This document shows, piece by piece, positions 134 through 6,587 of a stretch of 7,140 nucleotides of DNA. The DNA lies in the IMG/VR virus record IMGVR_UViG_2778261667_000001; one strand, written 5' to 3'. Made by a program: the position numbers and the translations under genes. Under the pieces are notes generated by a model. That model was not told the origin of the DNA and searched no databases. It saw only the letters and a program-made list of their open reading frames with translations. The stretch is from a virus. Taxonomy: Duplodnaviria > Heunggongvirae > Uroviricota > Caudoviricetes. The number at the start of each line of letters is the position of its first letter. Position 1 is the stretch's first letter.

Positions 134-167
134 CTAACTTTAGATAATTGGCATTATTTAAAGTTAG
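134..167. other. lox-like recombination site: 13-bp inverted arms flanking an 8-bp asymmetric spacer
   Basis: Seen in sequence: CTAACTTTAGATA (134-146), spacer ATTGGCAT (147-154), TATTTAAAGTTAG (155-167). The arms are inverted repeats matching at 12 of 13 positions. The 13+8+13 architecture is that of P1 loxP, and the arm matches the loxP arm ATAACTTCGTATA at 9 of 13 positions. It lies 152 bp upstream of the Cre-like gene, as loxP lies just upstream of cre in P1. Confidence 0.55.
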
Positions 168-175
168 GTTATAAT
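148..175 (+). promoter_or_regulatory. Candidate sigma70 promoter (-35 TTGGCA, 16-bp spacer, -10 TATAAT) overlapping the lox-like site
   Basis: Seen in sequence: TTGGCA at 148-153 (5/6 to TTGACA) and TATAAT at 170-175 (6/6), spaced 16 bp, oriented toward the recombinase gene at 319. The -35 sits inside the lox-like spacer and left edge of the right arm. Confidence 0.45.
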
Positions 176-1347: not shown

Positions 1348-1408
1348 ATTAAATTTCTAACATATCTTTTTAGATTGATATCTTTGCTGTAAAGTACCCT
1401 CGCCTATT

Positions 1409-1765
1409 TTGGAGGGTGCTTTGCAGAGTCAAATCACGGAATCAAGACGCTTCACGGTGGACGGTTACACCGTAACCTTCGCCGCTGGTGTTAAGAACAG
1501 TCATGCTGTCGTTGTATTCGGCATCATGACCGGGCTTGAGGCCGTCCCTGTATTTACCCTCGAAAAAAACTGGCGAAATCTGGAGGAAGCGGAAAGCTAT
1601 GTCCGGAAAGTAACCATCATTGCCGCCGAAAAACTCCTGGCCCACTATCAGGAAAATTATCGCACTATGGTCGAGAAAATTAATCTCGCTTTCACTCGCC
1701 CCACTACAGGCTTCATCGCCCCGGAGACTAATACAGGTCGCTATCCTGCAAGGGGTCGTCGGTGA
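1409..1765 (+). CDS. Hypothetical protein (about 114-118 aa, start codon uncertain)
   Basis: Intact ORF whose stop overlaps the next gene's GTG start (GTGA at 1762-1765). GGAGG at 1411-1415 sits 5 nt before an in-frame TTG at 1421, so the real start may be TTG 1421 or GTG 1457 rather than TTG 1409. No recognisable family. Confidence 0.5.
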   Translation: MEGALQSQITESRRFTVDGYTVTFAAGVKNSHAVVVFGIMTGLEAVPVFTLEKNWRNLEEAESYVRKVTIIAAEKLLAHYQENYRTMVEKINLAFTRPTTGFIAPETNTGRYPARGRR

Positions 1766-2238
1766 AAAATTATTACCCATCTCTGAATTGTTACCCGTCT
1801 TCGTATCCGGAATTGTCCGGGAAGCTGTTATCTCTTTTGGCTAAATCACCAACTGAATGGTTTAAGCCAGTCGTTATCAATCCACACTTCCTGGATTACG
1901 GATCTGTTCGCACTCGTAACGAACTCAAAAACCTGCTGGCGCATGGATTCATTCGACACCGTGCCGGGAAAGGCTATCAGTTAGCGATTTCGCCAGAAGA
2001 GGCCGTGCGGCTATTCGCATATCGTGACAGCCAGACAAAAGCACGGGTAATAGCTCAAATACTTCATAACGGCAGCACCTATGCCCGCCAGTTTGGCGGC
2101 GACACGTCGCAGTTCTTGCGGGCTGTGCGATCGCTGGAAGAACAAGGAGTTATTGAAAGTTCCTGTCTTCCTGTTCCTACCGTTCCACATATCAAACGTC
2201 GGGTTTACACCTTCACGCAGAGAGCTAAAAAACAATGA
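1762..2238 (+). CDS. Hypothetical protein, possible winged-helix DNA-binding protein
   Basis: 158-aa ORF with a GTG start overlapping the upstream stop and a stop overlapping the downstream ATG (ATGA at 2235-2238). Segments such as ELKNLLAHGFIRHRAGKGYQLAISPEEAVRLF and QFLRAVRSLEEQGVIES look like winged-helix recognition regions; this is inference from composition only. Confidence 0.55.
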   Translation: MKNYYPSLNCYPSSYPELSGKLLSLLAKSPTEWFKPVVINPHFLDYGSVRTRNELKNLLAHGFIRHRAGKGYQLAISPEEAVRLFAYRDSQTKARVIAQILHNGSTYARQFGGDTSQFLRAVRSLEEQGVIESSCLPVPTVPHIKRRVYTFTQRAKKQ

Positions 2239-2729
2239 TTTACGTAAAAGTGAAACGCCTACATCCGGAAGCAAAACTTCCAGCTTATGCCACTGCCGGA
2301 TCGGCGGCGATGGATTTTGAGGCTGTTGAAATAACACCGTGCGTCGATAGCAATGGTGCAATTTCCTCAAGCTGGTGGGTGCATACCGGGCTGGCTATGG
2401 AGATCCCGCCCGGCTGGTGTCTGAAACTCTATCCGCGTTCCGGATTGGGCTGCAAAAAACATACTCGCTTGGCTAACTGCGTAGGAATTATCGACTCCGA
2501 TTATCGCGGTGAAATCATGGCAAAACTGATTACTGATCCAGGCGGTGAAGGCGTTTGCCTCAAGCCGGGGATGGCGGTCATGCAAGGCATTTTTGAGCGT
2601 GTTGAACCGGTATCGCTGGTAGAAGTTGATGAACTCGATGAAACAGAACGAGGTGCTGGTGGCTTTGGTAGCACATCGGAAGGCCGCGTTGAAATCAAGC
2701 GTACACCGCTTCAGTACGCAAAGTTTTAA
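2235..2729 (+). CDS. dut: dUTP diphosphatase (trimeric dUTPase family)
   Basis: Matches conserved dUTPase motifs when compared by eye with E. coli Dut: PAYATAGSAAMDF (motif I), PRSGLG (motif II), GIIDSDYRGE (motif III) and RGAGGFGSTS (motif V). Motif V is followed by a short extra tail (EGRVEIKRTPLQYAKF). Start overlaps the upstream stop. Confidence 0.88.
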   Translation: MIYVKVKRLHPEAKLPAYATAGSAAMDFEAVEITPCVDSNGAISSSWWVHTGLAMEIPPGWCLKLYPRSGLGCKKHTRLANCVGIIDSDYRGEIMAKLITDPGGEGVCLKPGMAVMQGIFERVEPVSLVEVDELDETERGAGGFGSTSEGRVEIKRTPLQYAKF

Positions 2730-2743
2730 GTAGAGGAAGGATT

Positions 2744-3406
2744 ATGGCCAGCACTTTTCAGGTGTTCCCCAAATACAAATGCCACAGCATCATTCGGGCA
2801 TCGAAAATCAAAGATATTGTTATTGTCGGCAAAGCTTATGCGCCCATTTTTGGCAGCATCGAAGTCGTGGAGCCAAAAGGAATGACGCTTCGTGTTGATG
2901 GTGTGTTCTTGGAAAAGTTCCGACCGCAAATAGGAGGATATCTCGTCACTGCTGAAAATGGTTATCTGGTCTATGTGCCAGAGAAAGCATTTGAAAAATG
3001 CTATAGCCGGGTTAACGACGCCTCCGAAAATGGGGTATCGCTCAGCATTGAAGGTCACAATGGGGTGACATTCATTACAGCCAGGGACGTAACTATTTCT
3101 GCTGGCGGTATCGCTACTCTACAAGAAGAAATCGACCTTGAAGCAGCCGACTTTTCTGACGCGCTGATGTGGATGAAGGATGGCAAGAAAGTTGCTCGAC
3201 GCGGGTGGAACGGCGAAGACCAATTCTGCTGGCTGGTTCCTGAAGGACAGTACCCGGCACGAATGGAAGCCATTAAGGGATATTTCCCCGGCGACCTCGT
3301 TCCGTATGGTGCTTATTTCGCCTTAAAAAATGCACAAGGTGTAGTTGTTCCGTGGGTGCCTTCAGTTGGCGACCTGCTGGCCTGTGACTGGTTTGTTGTG
3401 GAGTGA
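2744..3406 (+). CDS. Two-domain hypothetical protein: unknown N-terminal domain fused to a C-terminal DUF2829-like (Tad2-type) domain
   Basis: 220-aa ORF with a good RBS (GGAAGGA at 2732-2738, ATG at 2744). The C-terminal ~80 aa (about 3161..3403) read ALMWMKDGKKVARRGWNG...PYGAYFALKNAQGVVVPWVPSVGDLLACDWFVVE. This matches the pattern I recall for small phage DUF2829 proteins (GKKV.R.GW near the start, D.LA.DW at the end). The N-terminal ~140 aa is unrecognised. Confidence 0.75.
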   Translation: MASTFQVFPKYKCHSIIRASKIKDIVIVGKAYAPIFGSIEVVEPKGMTLRVDGVFLEKFRPQIGGYLVTAENGYLVYVPEKAFEKCYSRVNDASENGVSLSIEGHNGVTFITARDVTISAGGIATLQEEIDLEAADFSDALMWMKDGKKVARRGWNGEDQFCWLVPEGQYPARMEAIKGYFPGDLVPYGAYFALKNAQGVVVPWVPSVGDLLACDWFVVE

Positions 3407-3412
3407 TTTAAC

Positions 3413-4219
3413 GTGGAAAATACCAAGAACATTCAATATCGCCTGCGTAACGGCCTGCTGGTGGATGTTAACGCTGACATGTCTCTGCCGCTCGACACGA
3501 TTGAACGCACTATCATGGCGTATCTTGGCTTTAATGAAGAGCTGAATGAAGAGCATGGCGTAGCCATATGGAGCGATGCAGACAACGGCGCTCGCCGTTA
3601 TATCACTGCCAGAGGCAAAGACTACTCTCTGGAAGAACTGTTTACCCTTGCGCAGTCTTTCGAATGTGTAGCATTGGATCTGTTTAATGATCCTGCTATA
3701 GCGCAACGACTTATCCGCGAGCTTGGGCTGTCCGTTACCCCAATCATCTTTAGAAATGGCAGCTTGACTGGCACATGGCGCGTAGAACGCATCTCAAACT
3801 ACCTTCCATATAACCGACAGTTAAATGGAGTAATCTCCGGCGTTAATCAGCCCGTAGCGTGTGAAAATGTAAACCTAGTTGTCGCTGTTTTGGCAACCGC
3901 ATGTCGCGTTATTGGTTTGACTAAACAGGCATTTATTCATTTCCCAAATGGTGCAGATGGTAGCGCAGAGATTATCGCGTGTGATTTCGAATTTACCTGG
4001 ATGCTACGAGAATATCTGGACAAAACAGTATTCCGTGCCGAAGAACTGGATATGTATATCACGTCAACGATTCCTGATGATGTGCGAGCTGAAGCAATCG
4101 CTACAGCCAGGGCTAAATGCCGTGCGGCGATTGCAGAACAGGCCAAAGAAGAACAGTCCGATGAAGTCGCGGCAGATGTGGAAGCAGAGGTAGCGGAGGA
4201 TGCTGATGCTGACGCCTAA
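3413..4219 (+). CDS. Hypothetical protein with a strongly acidic C-terminal tail
   Basis: 268-aa ORF. The first start codon in frame is GTG at 3413, two codons after the upstream TGA and in the same frame, with no obvious SD, so the start is uncertain. The last ~30 aa (EQAKEEQSDEVAADVEAEVAEDADADA) are very acidic. The 3' end overlaps the next gene by 20 nt. Confidence 0.65.
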   Translation: MENTKNIQYRLRNGLLVDVNADMSLPLDTIERTIMAYLGFNEELNEEHGVAIWSDADNGARRYITARGKDYSLEELFTLAQSFECVALDLFNDPAIAQRLIRELGLSVTPIIFRNGSLTGTWRVERISNYLPYNRQLNGVISGVNQPVACENVNLVVAVLATACRVIGLTKQAFIHFPNGADGSAEIIACDFEFTWMLREYLDKTVFRAEELDMYITSTIPDDVRAEAIATARAKCRAAIAEQAKEEQSDEVAADVEAEVAEDADADA

Positions 4220-5306
4220 AAACATCACCGAATTACCAGAGTGGAGAGAGCTGGTAAGCAAATATAGCCATGACTGGGCATTAGCAGCAGAAGAGTTGAT
4301 GGGTGTTAAGTTAACCCACCAGCAAAAGCTAATTGTTGAGGCGATTCAACAAAAAGGTTCAGCAGTCAGCGTCACCACTCCTGAAGGGATAGGCCAAAAG
4401 ACGGTTATGGCTATAATTAGTATTCTTTATACAATCCTGATGCCTGAGTCTAAAACGGTCATTGTTTCCCCAAAGTTCTATAATTGTCGCAGGCAAGTTA
4501 TCCAATACATAAGTACGTATTGGGATAGAGTCAGTAACAGAATCCCATTGCTGGGAGAATATTTTAAAGTCGACGGAAACGGCATCACTCATCGTTACCG
4601 GGAATATTGGGGCTGCGAAATTAAGCCATATCACCGAAATTATGAGGAAGGTTTCGGTGGATATTATGCTGAACATCTTTTAATCATTGTTACGGAGGCG
4701 GCTCTTGCTGGCGATCGGCTATTCAGCATGTTAAGAGCATCGTTAGTAAGTGACGATTCACGTATACTTTTAATGTCCGCTCCTTCAGAGGAGGAGCATG
4801 GACACTTTTACGATTCCCATCATGGTCGTGCAAAATCTGAAGAAAATCCATGTGGTATTTATACAGCCATCAAGTTGAACGCAGAAGATACCCCCATTAT
4901 TTCTCAAGGTTATCTTGATAACATTGCAGAAATATATGGTGGTAAAAATAGCGATTACTACCGTCGTATGGTTCTTGGTGAGTTCCCTGGTATTCGGGAG
5001 GCTGTTCTTGAATCAGATATGCCGAAAACAATGCGCTTTACGATGCATGATGGTAGTGAATGGACAATGCCATTACTAGTGATAGCCCGGCATCATGCAC
5101 AGCACCACGCCAAAAAACATGGCGTTACAACATTAGAGTGGTTGAAATCGCACACCATTCCACTCTTCACTGCAGATCACAATGCTATCGTTGAGTGGGC
5201 AAAAACAATTCCGTGGGAGAATGTCGCTGAATACGCCAACATGCTAAAACCGCCGAAAGACAGGCAAGAAATTAGCTGGCTGACAGCAGAAAAAATCATC
5301 GAGTGA
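4200..5306 (+). CDS. Terminase-large-subunit-like ASCE ATPase domain protein (no nuclease domain, divergent Walker motifs)
   Basis: 368-aa ORF; ATG 4206 is the more likely start because GGAGG at 4195-4199 sits 6 nt upstream of it. Motif order and spacing fit a terminase ATPase domain: Walker A-like PEGIGQKT (aa 61-68), Walker B-like LLIIVTE (aa 160-166), coupling motif-like LLMSAPS (aa 190-196), and YYRRMVLGEFPG near aa 253-264. The Gly before the Walker A Lys is Q and the Walker B Asp is T. The remaining ~100 aa are too short for an RNaseH-like nuclease domain and show no acidic triad. Confidence 0.7.
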   Translation: MLMLTPKNITELPEWRELVSKYSHDWALAAEELMGVKLTHQQKLIVEAIQQKGSAVSVTTPEGIGQKTVMAIISILYTILMPESKTVIVSPKFYNCRRQVIQYISTYWDRVSNRIPLLGEYFKVDGNGITHRYREYWGCEIKPYHRNYEEGFGGYYAEHLLIIVTEAALAGDRLFSMLRASLVSDDSRILLMSAPSEEEHGHFYDSHHGRAKSEENPCGIYTAIKLNAEDTPIISQGYLDNIAEIYGGKNSDYYRRMVLGEFPGIREAVLESDMPKTMRFTMHDGSEWTMPLLVIARHHAQHHAKKHGVTTLEWLKSHTIPLFTADHNAIVEWAKTIPWENVAEYANMLKPPKDRQEISWLTAEKIIE

Positions 5307-5310
5307 TAGT

Positions 5311-5342
5311 AAAAAGCCCGCCTGGTTGAGCGGGCTTTTTTA
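5311..5342. terminator. Bidirectional Rho-independent terminator
   Basis: Seen in sequence: AAAAA-GCCCGC-ctggttga-GCGGGC-TTTTTT. A 6-bp GC stem with an 8-nt loop is flanked by an A-tract and a T-tract, 5 nt after the stop of the 4200..5306 gene, between convergent blocks. Confidence 0.75.
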
Positions 5343-5498
5343 TGCGCCTTAAATCACAGGTCTATCATCAAACATCAACTGGAATGAGTGAGGAATCGAC
5401 CACAAGCAACGCCCCTTGCAATATGCCTTCGCGGTTTTCGAGTAAACAACTTAGCGCGGAATCAGTATTCGCCACAAGATGTAAAAAGTCCACCAGTG

Positions 5499-5765
5499 TT
5501 ATGGTTCGCATTTCCATATGGTGTTCTGAACGCCAGTACCGGGCGCGAGATGGGGGTTAGCGTTCGCGCTATGCTGATATACGGCTTTAGACTTTCCATA
5601 TTGCTGACAGGCTTTATCTGCGGTTTTTTGCAGGCTATCCAGCCCATACCAGCCATCTGACTGGATGCTTACCTTTTCACCGTCATTGTATTGCACCATC
5701 GCACACCCAGATATAGCCAGTATCGCGCCGACAATAACGCTATTCCATAAAACTCTATGCAACAT
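5499..5765 (-). CDS. Small putative lipoprotein (about 88 aa)
   Basis: Taking ATG at 5765 as start, the N-terminus MLHRVLWNSVIVGAILAISGCA has a basic n-region, a hydrophobic core and a lipobox-like ISGC. The mature part would be ~65 aa with two more Cys. The ORF track start at 5771 is a TTG two codons upstream. Confidence 0.5.
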   Translation of the reverse strand: MLHRVLWNSVIVGAILAISGCAMVQYNDGEKVSIQSDGWYGLDSLQKTADKACQQYGKSKAVYQHSANANPHLAPGTGVQNTIWKCEP

Positions 5766-5769
5766 ATAC

Positions 5770-5800
5770 AAAAATCCCCTCTGTGAATTGAGGGGATTTT
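5770..5800 (-). terminator. Hairpin with T-tract, candidate intrinsic terminator or attenuator for minus-strand transcription
   Basis: Seen in sequence, plus strand: AAAATCCCCTC-tgtgaatt-GAGGGGATTTT (11-bp perfect stem with a 7-bp GC-rich core). On the minus strand the stem is followed by TTTTTGTAT and then the ATG at 5765, so the 3' half (GAGGGGA) could also serve as that gene's SD. Confidence 0.5.
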
Positions 5801-5834
5801 AGCATGGTGATCAGATATCAGCTTTATCCGGAAT

Positions 5835-6587
5835 TTAATCAGCCTCCAGTGGCAATAACGCCTTAGCCATTTCATGAATCAGCATGGCATCAATGACGCC
5901 TAGCGTATGGCCCGGCTTAATCTTTAATGCGGCCTCAAGATAGCCTCTTTCCAGAGTGGTTTTTACGCTTTTCCTGGGCGCTTGTTGGGAACTATCCGGA
6001 AGATCCGGATGGTTGCCAGCCTCATAAGCTACCCGCAACCAGTGCATGAATGTTTCCGCAGACACACAACCGCAGTCCACATCAATTTCCCCGCGTTGCT
6101 GTTCCAGCCATTGCTCAAAATCTAACTTGTAAGCCTTACTTTCAAGTTCATCACCATTGGACTTGACTTTCTGAGACGCTATGCGAGCTGCTTCATACTG
6201 TTCACGAGTGACAACCGATGTAAACGCACTGCGATCAAGGTCACTGATATCGCAAATAATGCCATCCAAGGAATAATTCTTTGATGATTGGTAATTTTTA
6301 TGGCGCGTACCAAAAAGAACCATAGCGCGACTACTACCTGGCATCGTAATGGATAGATGGCAAAAATCTTTTCCATCAGGCCATCCACGCCCCTTAGATA
6401 ATTCCTTCACTAACAAGTCAATCAGTGTCATAGCGTTACCATCCTTGCAAGGCGCTAAAGCTATTTTGGCAAGCTCCAATACGTCATCTGCTGTGTATCC
6501 AGCACCGTGACCATACATTTCGATACGGGAAATAATATCTGAAATACGCTCTTTAGTGATTCTTGTCATAGTTTTATTTCCTTGCAT
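5835..6587 (-). CDS. Hypothetical protein (244-250 aa)
   Basis: Long intact minus-strand ORF. Both ATG 6587 (AAGG 5-6 nt upstream) and ATG 6569 (AAGGAAA upstream, overlapping the upstream stop as ATGA) are plausible starts. No recognisable family. Confidence 0.7.
   Translation of the reverse strand: MQGNKTMTRITKERISDIISRIEMYGHGAGYTADDVLELAKIALAPCKDGNAMTLIDLLVKELSKGRGWPDGKDFCHLSITMPGSSRAMVLFGTRHKNYQSSKNYSLDGIICDISDLDRSAFTSVVTREQYEAARIASQKVKSNGDELESKAYKLDFEQWLEQQRGEIDVDCGCVSAETFMHWLRVAYEAGNHPDLPDSSQQAPRKSVKTTLERGYLEAALKIKPGHTLGVIDAMLIHEMAKALLPLEAD

Follow-up and report, generated by a model that had tools for sequence, protein, structure and literature searches.

orf2-orf3-dut of D6-like phage-plasmids: a probable early operon with an apparently ordinary, exchangeable dUTPase

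The trimeric dUTPases (Duts) of the staphylococcal phages 80alpha and phi11 derepress SaPIs by binding Stl, and in P1 the gene ref, which lies downstream of cre, is regulated by C1. Closest to the locus analysed here is Escherichia phage D6 (NC_050154/MF356679), in which orf117-orf116-orf115(dut) follow in this order directly downstream of dre/rox. A record of the D6 immC region, AY753669, holds the same three genes under the names orf2-orf3-dut, which are used below. D6-like phage-plasmids occur widely among E. coli and Salmonella, and their Dre recombinase is the source of the Dre/rox tool; the narrow, uncharacterised orf2/orf3 pair stays beside its gene.

The window, a 7,140-nt stretch of DNA (IMG/VR record IMGVR_UViG_2778261667_000001), is by its sequence part of a D6-like (P1-family) phage-plasmid of E. 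coli. It shares 94–95% nucleotide identity with D6 and with many 87–95-kb E. coli plasmids that carry the same genes. The three + strand ORFs of the initial annotation are, on this comparison, the already-catalogued orf117-orf116-dut genes of D6-like phage-plasmids and are not new. Their products are 92–97% identical to the D6 proteins, and the 4-nt gene overlaps and the hairpin sequence are identical in D6. The two differ by a few percent and by mosaic segments downstream; D6 has phd/doc where the window has its 5.3–5.8 kb segment, and the Tad2-like gene of D6 is shorter (146 aa, compared with 220 aa in the window). The 2004 clone record AY753669 has a rearranged dut 3′ end, suggestive of a disrupted gene, which is ruled out for D6 by the intact 164-aa gene of its complete genome.

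The best explanation, held with moderate confidence, is a D6-like early operon, probably repressed by C1, in which an ordinary dUTPase accompanies the orf2-orf3 pair. The grouping of the three genes into a module proves to be an arbitrary cut, since six tightly packed + strand genes span positions 1421–5306 and are followed by a terminator-like site (Table 1). The unit comprises orf2, orf3, dut, the Tad2-like gene, an isaA-like gene, and a pacB-like gene, so that orf2-orf3-dut would be the first three genes of a six-gene operon on one strand, directly downstream of dre. The order Dre-orf2-orf3-Dut-(Tad2-like)-IsaA-like is kept in 34 IMG/VR loci and in relatives with orf3 identities down to 25%. 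What this changes is mostly annotation: a TTG start for orf2 at 1421, a probable tandem winged-helix product for orf116, and a dut that looks like an ordinary, exchangeable accessory enzyme.

Table 1. Coordinates of the features discussed, in positions of the window
Feature	Position	Strand	Basis or remarks
rox-like recombination site (TAACTTTAGATAAT-TGGC-ATTATTTAAAGTTA)	135–166	+	placed by means of the rox annotation in AY753669
dre, Cre-like tyrosine recombinase, 342 aa	319–1347	+	99% identical to D6 Dre; Pfam Phage_integrase E 3.5e-16
Candidate C1-type operator (TTTCTAACA), ~60 nt upstream of orf2	1354–1362	+	motif common to the c1 upstream region
RNA hairpin, 15 bp, 10-nt loop (1387–1401 paired with 1412–1426)	1387–1426	+	folding
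orf2 (D6 orf117, PHROG 1968), 114 aa	1421–1765	+	
orf3 (D6 orf116, PHROG 6669), 158 aa, GTG start	1762–2238	+	SD AAGGGG at 1750–1755
dut (D6 orf115), trimeric dUTPase, 164 aa	2235–2729	+	profile matches, motifs
220-aa protein, N-terminal domain without assignment and DUF2829/Tad2-like C-terminal domain	2744–3406	+	
IsaA-like protein, 268 aa, acidic tail	3413–4219	+	PHROG 2326; D6 annotation "similar to P1 gene isaA"
Protein of 368 aa, paralogous to the N-terminal portion of PacB (terminase large subunit); last gene of the unit	4200–5306	+	
Terminator-like hairpin followed by a T-run; closes the + strand unit	5320–5343	+	

The overlapping stop and start codons joining the three ORFs are present as first described (GTGA at 1762–1765 and ATGA at 2235–2238, 4 nt each). 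At both junctions the stop codon overlaps the downstream start, an arrangement conserved in relatives and expected of coupled genes. The overlap between orf2 and orf3 is kept in loci L003, L004, L005, and L041, with GTG, ATG, and TTG all occurring as starts. While orf3 has a good SD (6-nt spacer), that of dut is poor (GAGAG, 10-nt spacing), and both genes would be translated by coupling or re-initiation. As the mark of a special module the overlaps fail, being common in the replicon and no more frequent than expected, and the stoichiometric co-expression read from them does not follow, since a 4-nt overlap shows neither stoichiometry nor a complex. In the annotation table of the relative pAPEC201603, a manual count gives 21 pairs of neighbours on the same strand, of which about 12 overlap, five of these by exactly 4 nt. 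The closest outgroup dut, located in an unrelated RecT/SSB phage module, has 4-nt overlaps on its flanks too.

Downstream of dut, the 220-aa protein scores 79.5 bits (E 2.7e-22) with the Tad2/DUF2829 profile PF11195, whose gathering cutoff is 25, and also matches PHROG 872 and 11049. In every locus that extends far enough, the IsaA-like gene comes next after orf3, dut, or the Tad2-like gene. The 368-aa protein is 33–41% identical to the pacB product of the same replicons over approximately residues 7–263 and weakly matches PHROG 2 (terminase large subunit). Sub-threshold Rfam matches to attenuator leaders at 5271–5343 reflect the terminator-like hairpin that ends the unit.

The start of orf2 is most likely TTG 1421, giving 114 aa, and not position 1409. 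Against the longer 118-aa reading, the TTG at 1409 is TAG in relatives such as pAPEC201603. Homologues of 114 aa are called from the equivalent TTG, as is orf117 in the complete D6 genome, and both protein conservation and strand beta1 of the AF2 model reach back to TTG 1421. One 153-aa sequence, P0025, was left out of the comparisons as a frameshifted artefact. The product is modelled as a four-stranded beta-meander with three helices and has a conserved, basic, disordered tail (GFIAP...GRYPxRGRR); a fold search with this model gave no identifiable relatives and no toxin-like matches.

From this start, translation of orf2 is probably held down by a hairpin in which its SD and the weak TTG codon are buried. 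The fold at 1387–1426 has a dG of −25.6 kcal/mol (z −4.4), and none of 200 shuffles folds as well. A 6-bp hairpin that could occlude the SD had been noticed here; the ACCCTC/GAGGGT pairs exist and the SD lies in the stem, but the six pairs are the tip of a stronger, 15-bp stem whose 3′ arm contains both the SD (GGAGG, 1411–1415) and the TTG (1421–1423). Two G.U pairs make the hairpin specific to the + strand RNA. It occurs at the same place in eight of eight enterobacterial relatives with different stem sequences, and in all eight the SD is in the 3′ arm and the TTG in the arm or directly beside it. Covariation amounts to two or three pairs with double changes, drawn from few independent sequences, and the 3′ arm is under additional constraint from the SD and start codon. 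An Rfam search found no family matching positions 1387–1426. The placement of SD and start in all eight relatives makes it unlikely that the stem is mainly a transcription terminator or attenuator, or an element for RNA processing or stabilisation, rather than a translational occluder. It does sit in the dre-orf2 intergenic region, a promoter firing near 1383 would make it a 5′-terminal hairpin, and in L004 eight consecutive T come after the equivalent stem; however, the window and most relatives have no T-run there, and in L003 a canonical terminator, distinct from the stem, lies upstream.

Control of the operon at the level of transcription probably involves the C1 immunity repressor. The 9–10-nt motif TTTTCTAACA occurs once upstream of orf2 and twice upstream of c1. 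In L002, L003, L004, L005, and L041, the form (T)TTTCTAACA is found as two inverted copies just upstream of c1 and one copy upstream of orf2, with a few copies differing by one base; in L031, one of the c1-side copies is present. Each of these five diverged loci therefore has three conserved motif positions, while exact 10-mers are expected at ~0.02 per 10 kb. The copy upstream of orf2 suggests repression by C1, although orf3 or another protein may be the one that binds, and through this candidate site C1 would keep the operon repressed until infection or induction. Together with the conserved hairpin over the SD and start, the candidate D6-type C1 operator yields a model of regulation that can be tested, for an operon that has received little study. 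C1-controlled early operons of P1, such as that of ref, likewise lie downstream of the recombinase gene (cre there, dre here), and, as in such operons, an asymmetric, AT-rich, operator-like motif is common to the operon and the c1 upstream region. In contrast, the gene content is unrelated to that of P1 cra/ref, and the P1 C1 operator consensus ATTGCTCTAATAAATTT has no match with three or fewer mismatches in the window or the D6 immC record.

A sigma-70 promoter scan of the window found only one strong candidate, which overlaps the rox-like site (TTGGCA at 148–153, 16-nt spacer, TATAAT at 170–175; score 11/12). In the interval from dre to orf2 the scan returned no consensus promoter, so orf2 could be transcribed either by read-through from that of dre or from a promoter of its own. 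Two hand-picked candidates in this interval, TTAAAT-16-TAGATT and a −10 element TATCTT, are weak and are not claimed as promoters.

The description of the 158-aa orf3 product as a winged-helix protein is borne out by its AF2 model. Residues 11–86 are modelled as H-b-H-H-b-b with pLDDT of about 87 (H16–28, H36–43, H48–60, E64–67, and E71–74 at 86–89), a fold held in common with MarR/ArsR/GntR-type regulators. The best PDB matches from Foldseek are GntR, Rrf2, MarR, and BusR regulators at probabilities of 0.97–1.0, with E-values of only 4e-3. The C-terminal half is modelled with low confidence (pLDDT below 50), and for this half a profile comparison gives weak matches (E 0.01–0.05) to wHTH domains, namely those of CodY, of SlyA, and of a protein of the ArsR family. 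Residues ~82–156 carry a MarR/ArsR/GntR-like pattern, in which a recognition helix (QFLRAVRSLEEQGVIES) is followed by a wing. The protein is thus a probable tandem winged-helix DNA binder. Unlike the MarR/ArsR/GntR regulators, it would fit two winged-helix domains into 158 aa, and it has a conserved N-terminal YYPSLNCYPSSYP motif. Distant family members weakly match Pfam MarR and TrmB, while the window protein belongs to no named Pfam wHTH family and is without match in Pfam, NCBIfam, and PDB sequence searches. The family is tiny, with nine clusters among 5.8 billion proteins and five distant representatives; a scan of genome contigs with its profile yielded no confirmed locus. Its most likely role is that of a DNA-binding regulator with the orf2 product as partner.

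Comparison of the loci shows orf2 and orf3 as a conserved unit whose members diverge together, always on the same side of recombination breakpoints. Such behaviour, along with the retained overlap and the constant position next to the recombinase gene, would also be expected of a self-contained pair (toxin-antitoxin, exclusion, or plasmid maintenance) or a Dre/rox accessory, in either case with no relation to the genes that follow. Of the pair, the first gene is small, and its TTG start and hairpin would restrain it tightly, so that little of its product is made; autoregulated TA modules typically include a wHTH partner, and one distant orf3 member weakly matches AbiEi_4 (E 0.015). This reading is nonetheless improbable: neither protein matches any TA or defence family, with nothing significant in PDB, Pfam, NCBIfam, or PADLOC searches, the orf2 fold gives no toxin-like matches, and, unlike mobile TA modules, the family is restricted to a handful of clusters in P1/D6-like elements.

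The third gene follows a different course, and its sequence history indicates that it recombines independently of orf2-orf3. Nucleotide identity jumps at the orf3|dut boundary, from 71% to 91% in L031 and from 67% to 92% in L036. In L005 and L042, dut is missing while orf2 and orf3 remain; in L004, P0029, and P0030 it is fused or truncated, as it is in some E. coli variants. Its closest outgroup counterpart, in the RecT/SSB module, likewise speaks for dut as a separate cassette. Two in-frame fusions of Dut with the Tad2-like protein are independent, one in L004 and the other in P0029 (15 member sequences), where part of catalytic motif V is lost. The Tad2-like gene is absent from L003, L036, L037, and L041. 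Across these loci, the place behind orf3 is an accessory slot with exchangeable content: a dUTPase, a Tad2-like gene, the two together, a fusion of them, or neither. On the other hand, orf3-dut adjacency persists in the very distant relatives L043–45 (orf3 ~25% identical), which is also compatible with a functional link.

HMM searches of all three proteins returned a dUTPase for the third and no significant Pfam or NCBIfam match for the orf2 and orf3 products. The initial assignment of dut is confirmed by three family profiles above their curated cutoffs: NCBIfam NF001862 (119.6 bits, cutoff 103), TIGR00576 (118.4 bits, cutoff 102.55), and Pfam PF00692 (E 2.3e-13, 50.5 bits, cutoff 22). Dut aligns over its full length with homotrimeric dUTPases (E. 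coli Dut; PDB 8y1q, 3mbq, 1dud), and its best PDB matches are bacterial enzymes at E 1e-24 to 1e-21. Motifs I (AGSAAMD), II (PRSG, in PRSGLG), III (GIIDSDYRGE), and V (RGAGGFGSTS) align with those of E. coli Dut and the PDB enzymes and include the catalytic Asp, the Tyr, the Arg finger, and GFGS(T/S). Motif IV departs from G-(D/E)-R-(I/V)-A-Q and reads GMAVMQ, with Gln kept and Arg replaced by Ala. The residue is Ala in all 15 D6-like sequences, Val in deeper relatives, and Arg in ~100 other (outgroup) homologues. Dut would most simply act as an ordinary homotrimeric dUTPase that keeps dUTP low during phage-plasmid replication and uracil out of the DNA.

A regulatory role modelled on the staphylococcal phages was put forward at the outset for Dut, in which it would bind orf3 (and orf2) and modulate its DNA binding at a stoichiometry fixed by the overlaps. 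Common to both systems is a phage-encoded trimeric Dut on a temperate element. In favour of such signalling are the winged-helix nature of orf3, the deep adjacency of the two genes at low orf3 identity, the clade-wide loss of the motif IV Arg, and an insert of hypervariable length that separates motif I from the WWVxTGLA strand and may serve as an interaction surface. The Dut of 80alpha has ~26 extra residues between motifs III and IV. The window Dut has 18 residues in this interval, as compared with 17 in E. coli Dut, and so lacks the motif VI insertion of the staphylococcal enzymes. The C-terminal tail noted earlier does exist, as 16 residues after GFGSTS; it is limited to the E. coli/D6 group, whereas the Klebsiella and Raoultella relatives have none and deep relatives carry a low-complexity tail of 65 aa instead. 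Unlike the staphylococcal system, Dut here is accompanied by no Stl-like repressor or island and does not co-evolve with the adjacent winged-helix gene, from which a recombination breakpoint separates it. Given also that orf2 and orf3 persist without dut, that Dut variants without motif V circulate, and that the overlaps are generic in the replicon, regulation by Dut is very unlikely, and its features fit an ordinary enzyme, open to exchange, better than they fit a partner of the winged-helix protein.

The shared slot bears on another reading, in which Dut and the Tad2-like protein form a nucleotide-directed counter-defence cassette within an early anti-defence operon: Dut would remove or sequester a deoxyuridine-type nucleotide of host defence, while a signalling nucleotide would be soaked up by the Tad2-like domain. 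The two genes are near-identical between lineages whose flanks differ by 25–30%, the fusions arose twice, the Pfam match to the Tad2-like domain is strong, and early, repressor-controlled expression is plausible. However, fusions of adjacent genes arise easily by deletion, P0029 has lost part of motif V, and each gene occurs without the other, dut in the four loci devoid of a Tad2-like gene and the Tad2-like gene in L005. PADLOC gave no matches, and a literature search found no paper linking a dUTPase with Tad2 or DUF2829 in defence. A cassette of this kind is accordingly improbable, and the ordinary dUTPase remains the preferred identity of Dut.

The clade as a whole could nevertheless be viewed as specialised, because it combines the motif IV Arg loss, the hypervariable insert, and variable tails with deep adjacency to a tandem winged-helix gene and recurrent fusion or adjacency to a Tad2-like gene. 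That the dUTPases of P1/D6-like phage-plasmids do more than pool sanitation is improbable; if they did, Dut may be a nucleotide-sensing partner of the orf2/orf3 regulator or half of the counter-defence cassette with the Tad2-like protein. The fixed Arg-to-Ala change in motif IV could lower or alter activity. The dUTPase of ASFV is active, and Arg185 of the swine enzyme is listed as a residue that is not conserved in the ASFV one (PMC7948977). Swine Arg185, equated by residue numbering, appears to be the motif IV Arg; an active ASFV enzyme apparently without this residue makes activity of the window Dut still likely. The clade-wide absence of the arginine and the recurrent Dut-Tad2-like fusions represent minor novelties at the level of sequence, and a dUTPase clade that lacks this near-universal residue and is sometimes fused to a Tad2-like domain poses a cheap biochemical question.

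Megablast assigns the window to the D6-like group of P1-family phage-plasmids: Escherichia phage D6 and many non-mobilisable plasmids of 87–95 kb from E. coli, Salmonella, and Shigella match it at 94–95% identity. The locus has been deposited and annotated before and is thus already catalogued: the same genes stand in the D6 immC record (AY753669, locus L001; order rox, dre, orf2, orf3, dut) and in the complete D6 genome (NC_050154, L046), where orf118 (cre-like), orf117, orf116, and orf115 (dUTP diphosphatase) are the counterparts of dre, orf2, orf3, and dut and are followed by orf114 (DUF2829) and orf113 (annotated "similar to P1 isaA"). Two products match PHROG 1968 and PHROG 6669, which are families without known function.

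The initial annotation described a coupled three-gene module and proposed a regulatory dUTPase with a DNA-binding-like partner. All three ORFs are present as described, as are both stop/start overlaps (GTGA and ATGA). The first gene, placed there at position 1409, most likely starts at TTG 1421 instead, yielding a 114-aa protein. The codon at 1409 (TTG in the window) is TAG in relatives, the starts of the 114-aa orf2 homologues and of D6 orf117 are called at the equivalent of TTG 1421, GGAGG forms a proper Shine-Dalgarno (SD) sequence for this codon, and both residue conservation and the predicted first β-strand extend back to it. The overlaps do not set the module apart: of the same-strand neighbors annotated in the relative pAPEC201603, over half overlap, five by exactly 4 nt (counted from its annotation), and 4-nt overlaps also flank the closest outgroup dut, which belongs to an unrelated phage module with RecT and SSB. 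The module itself cuts through a six-gene unit, in which + strand genes continue downstream of dut with small gaps or overlaps. The last of these encodes a protein paralogous to PacB, the terminase large subunit of the same replicons, in its N-terminal (ATPase) part (33–41% identity over about residues 7–263; weak PHROG 2 match). It would be a second, truncated terminase-like ATPase, here in an early operon. The sole strong sigma-70-like promoter in the window lies upstream of dre.

A single mismatch separates the two arms of the rox-like site (TAACTTTAGATAAT vs the complement TAACTTTAAATAAT), and the predicted dre promoter overlaps the site such that the −35 element spans the rox spacer. A 90-aa ORF, read from the ORF list, carries a signal peptide and a lipobox-like LAISGC and may encode a small lipoprotein; phd/doc of D6 and pAPEC201603 stand in its position.

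Coordinates of features in the window and in compared loci
Feature	Coordinates	Strand	Remark
Window
rox-like site	135-166
Promoter	148-175		sigma-70-like, overlaps rox
−35 element	148-153		TTGGCA
Operator-like motif	1354-1362		candidate, (T)TTTCTAACA
Hairpin stem	1387-1401 with 1412-1426	+	15 bp
orf2 SD	1411-1415	+	GGAGG
orf2 start	1421	+	TTG, most likely
orf2/orf3 overlap	1762-1765	+	GTGA
orf3/dut overlap	2235-2238	+	ATGA
Dut loop	2330-2375	+	residues about 33-47
Dut motif IV	2568-2585	+	residues 112-117
220-aa protein	downstream of dut	+	C-terminal domain Tad2-like/DUF2829 (PF11195, 79.5 bits)
268-aa protein	downstream of 220-aa gene	+	IsaA-like
368-aa protein	4200-5306	+	last operon gene
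Terminator-like hairpin	5320-5343		with T-run, after 368-aa gene
90-aa ORF	5499-5771	-	putative lipoprotein
Other loci
L002 c1-side motif copies	2814-2822, 2896-2904
L004 (K. michiganensis) fusion	5434-6348		Dut-Tad2-like
L043, L044, L045 extra gene	4436-4894		152 aa
AY753669 rearranged dut	7316-7644
NC_050154 dut	2085-2579		intact, 164 aa

Using tblastn, we located the window proteins in 34 IMG/VR loci and in relatives retrieved one by one. Every contig that shows the region keeps the order recombinase, orf2, orf3, IsaA-like gene, even where orf3 is only about 25% identical (L043–45). In these three loci an extra gene, without detectable similarity, lies between the orf2 and orf3 homologues and overlaps the orf2 stop. 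What lies between orf3 and the IsaA-like gene varies: most loci hold dut and the Tad2-like gene, and others hold dut alone (L003, L036, L037, L041, L043–45), the Tad2-like gene alone (L005), neither (L042), or an in-frame Dut-Tad2-like fusion (L004). Such fusions have arisen twice independently. The Dut part is complete in L004, while in the E. coli fusion P0029 (15 member sequences) the FGST residues of motif V and the N-domain of the Tad2-like protein have been lost; P0030 is a frameshifted Dut variant without motif V. That Dut and the Tad2-like protein constitute a counter-defence cassette is quite unlikely; the two are found fused, and each is also found without the other.

Nucleotide identity to the window jumps sharply between neighboring genes, marking recombination breakpoints, in L031 (dre 86.5%, orf2 82.5%, orf3 70.6%, dut 91.1%), L036 (79.4, 78.8, 66.7, and 92.1%, respectively), and L006 (79.2, 95.3, 98.1, and 95.1%). 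No breakpoint splits orf2 from orf3, and their 4-nt overlap is retained with GTG, ATG, or TTG starts. On these comparisons, dut behaves as a cassette separate from orf2-orf3, and this speaks more strongly than the other results against orf3 and Dut being obligate partners.

The proposed winged-helix nature of the 158-aa orf3 protein is supported by its AlphaFold model, Foldseek, and a family profile. Residues 11–86 are modelled as a winged helix (pLDDT about 87), and the best PDB matches are GntR, Rrf2, MarR, and BusR regulators, with high probability but an E-value of only 4e-3. An enlarged-family profile matches, over residues about 82–156, the wHTH domains of CodY, an ArsR-family regulator, and SlyA (E 0.01–0.05), and distant members match Pfam MarR and TrmB. 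We read orf3 as a putative tandem winged-helix protein, the second domain being less firmly based, as model confidence is low in that half. The family is very small: 5.8 billion proteins contained 9 clusters, and a set of 1.8 billion added 5 distant representatives. The orf2 model (pLDDT 74) is a four-stranded β-meander followed by three helices and a conserved basic disordered tail. The orf2-orf3 pair could be a toxin-antitoxin, maintenance, or recombinase-accessory system, which we regard as improbable.

About 60 nt ahead of orf2 is an operator-like motif, (T)TTTCTAACA. Five diverged D6-like loci (L002, L003, L004, L005, and L041) carry it once upstream of orf2 and as two inverted copies immediately upstream of c1, the immunity repressor gene, a few copies differing by one base; L031 shows one of the c1-side copies. 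Chance expectation is about 0.02 exact 10-mers per 10 kb. P1-type repressors autoregulate immediately upstream of c1. A search for the P1 operator consensus found none, and the motif is distinct from it. It is probably a D6-type C1 operator, through which the operon would be repressed while the element is a plasmid prophage, although orf3, rather than C1, may be the protein that binds it.

Occlusion of the orf2 SD by a hairpin, as initially suggested, holds up, while the 6 bp then described are the tip of a 15-bp stem (ΔG −25.6 kcal/mol, z −4.4; none of 200 shuffles folds as well). Two G·U pairs identify it as a + strand RNA structure. It could act as a terminator or attenuator, a doubtful though conceivable role; both the SD and the TTG start of orf2 lie inside its 3′ arm. 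All eight enterobacterial relatives examined have a hairpin with the SD in the 3′ arm and the TTG either within that arm or adjoining it, with differing stem sequences and individual MFEs of −12 to −26.5 kcal/mol. Alignment-based counts give 2–3 pairs changed on both sides, which is suggestive, although not statistically strong because independent sequences are few. Rfam returned no matching family for the hairpin. Further downstream, orf3 has a good SD (AAGGGG, 6-nt spacer) and dut only a poor one (GAGAG at 10 nt), so dut is more likely than orf3 to depend on coupling.

The dUTPase assignment is borne out (NCBIfam equivalog NF001862, 119.6 bits vs a cutoff of 103). Judged by sequence, Dut is a canonical homotrimeric dUTPase that aligns end to end with solved bacterial enzymes and has motifs I, II, III, and V and the motif IV glutamine intact. 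Staphylococcal signalling Duts are defined by an insertion between motifs III and IV. This insertion is absent from the window Dut, by comparison with the 80alpha sequence, and staphylococcal-style moonlighting is highly unlikely. The sole deviation from a canonical enzyme is in motif IV, which reads GMAVMQ rather than the GERIAQ of E. coli Dut. The arginine, near-universal in dUTPases and retained in about 100 other homologues, is alanine in 15 of 15 D6-like sequences and valine in deeper P1-like relatives. Swine dUTPase Arg185, equated with this residue by numbering only, contacts the substrate and is counted among the residues not conserved in the ASFV enzyme, which is catalytically competent (PMC7948977); its replacement therefore does not argue for inactivity. 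The 16-aa C-terminal tail is confined to the E. coli/D6 group. Duts of the Klebsiella and Raoultella relatives stop directly after GFGSTS, and those of L043, L044, and L045 bear an unrelated 65-aa low-complexity Pro/Thr/acidic tail. Within the clade, length is hypervariable in the loop that joins motif I to the WWVxTGLA strand: the window has 8 more residues there than E. coli Dut, and L003 and L041 have about 13–17 beyond that.

The analyses show directly which genes these are, how they overlap, how stable and conserved the hairpin is, where the motif occurs, and that the loci are mosaic. The mechanism we propose is inferred. The operator-like motif would let C1 repress the operon. Once repression is lifted, orf2 translation would be held low by the hairpin and the weak TTG start, and orf3 and dut would be translated next, by coupling or re-initiation. 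Dut trimers would hydrolyze dUTP during replication, while orf3, probably together with orf2, would bind DNA. A regulatory Dut complex finds no support in these analyses, and several results point against it; what was originally observed is real, if ordinary. What remains of interest is the model of hairpin and operator, the tiny orf2/orf3 family, the loss of the motif IV arginine throughout the clade, and the repeated fusion of Dut with a Tad2-like protein.

In AY753669, the 3′ part of dut is swapped for a foreign segment followed by a repeated dut piece, and the predicted product has a C1-repressor Pfam match. Unlike this 2004 immC record, the complete D6 genome has an intact dut, and the rearrangement is probably a cloning or assembly artefact.
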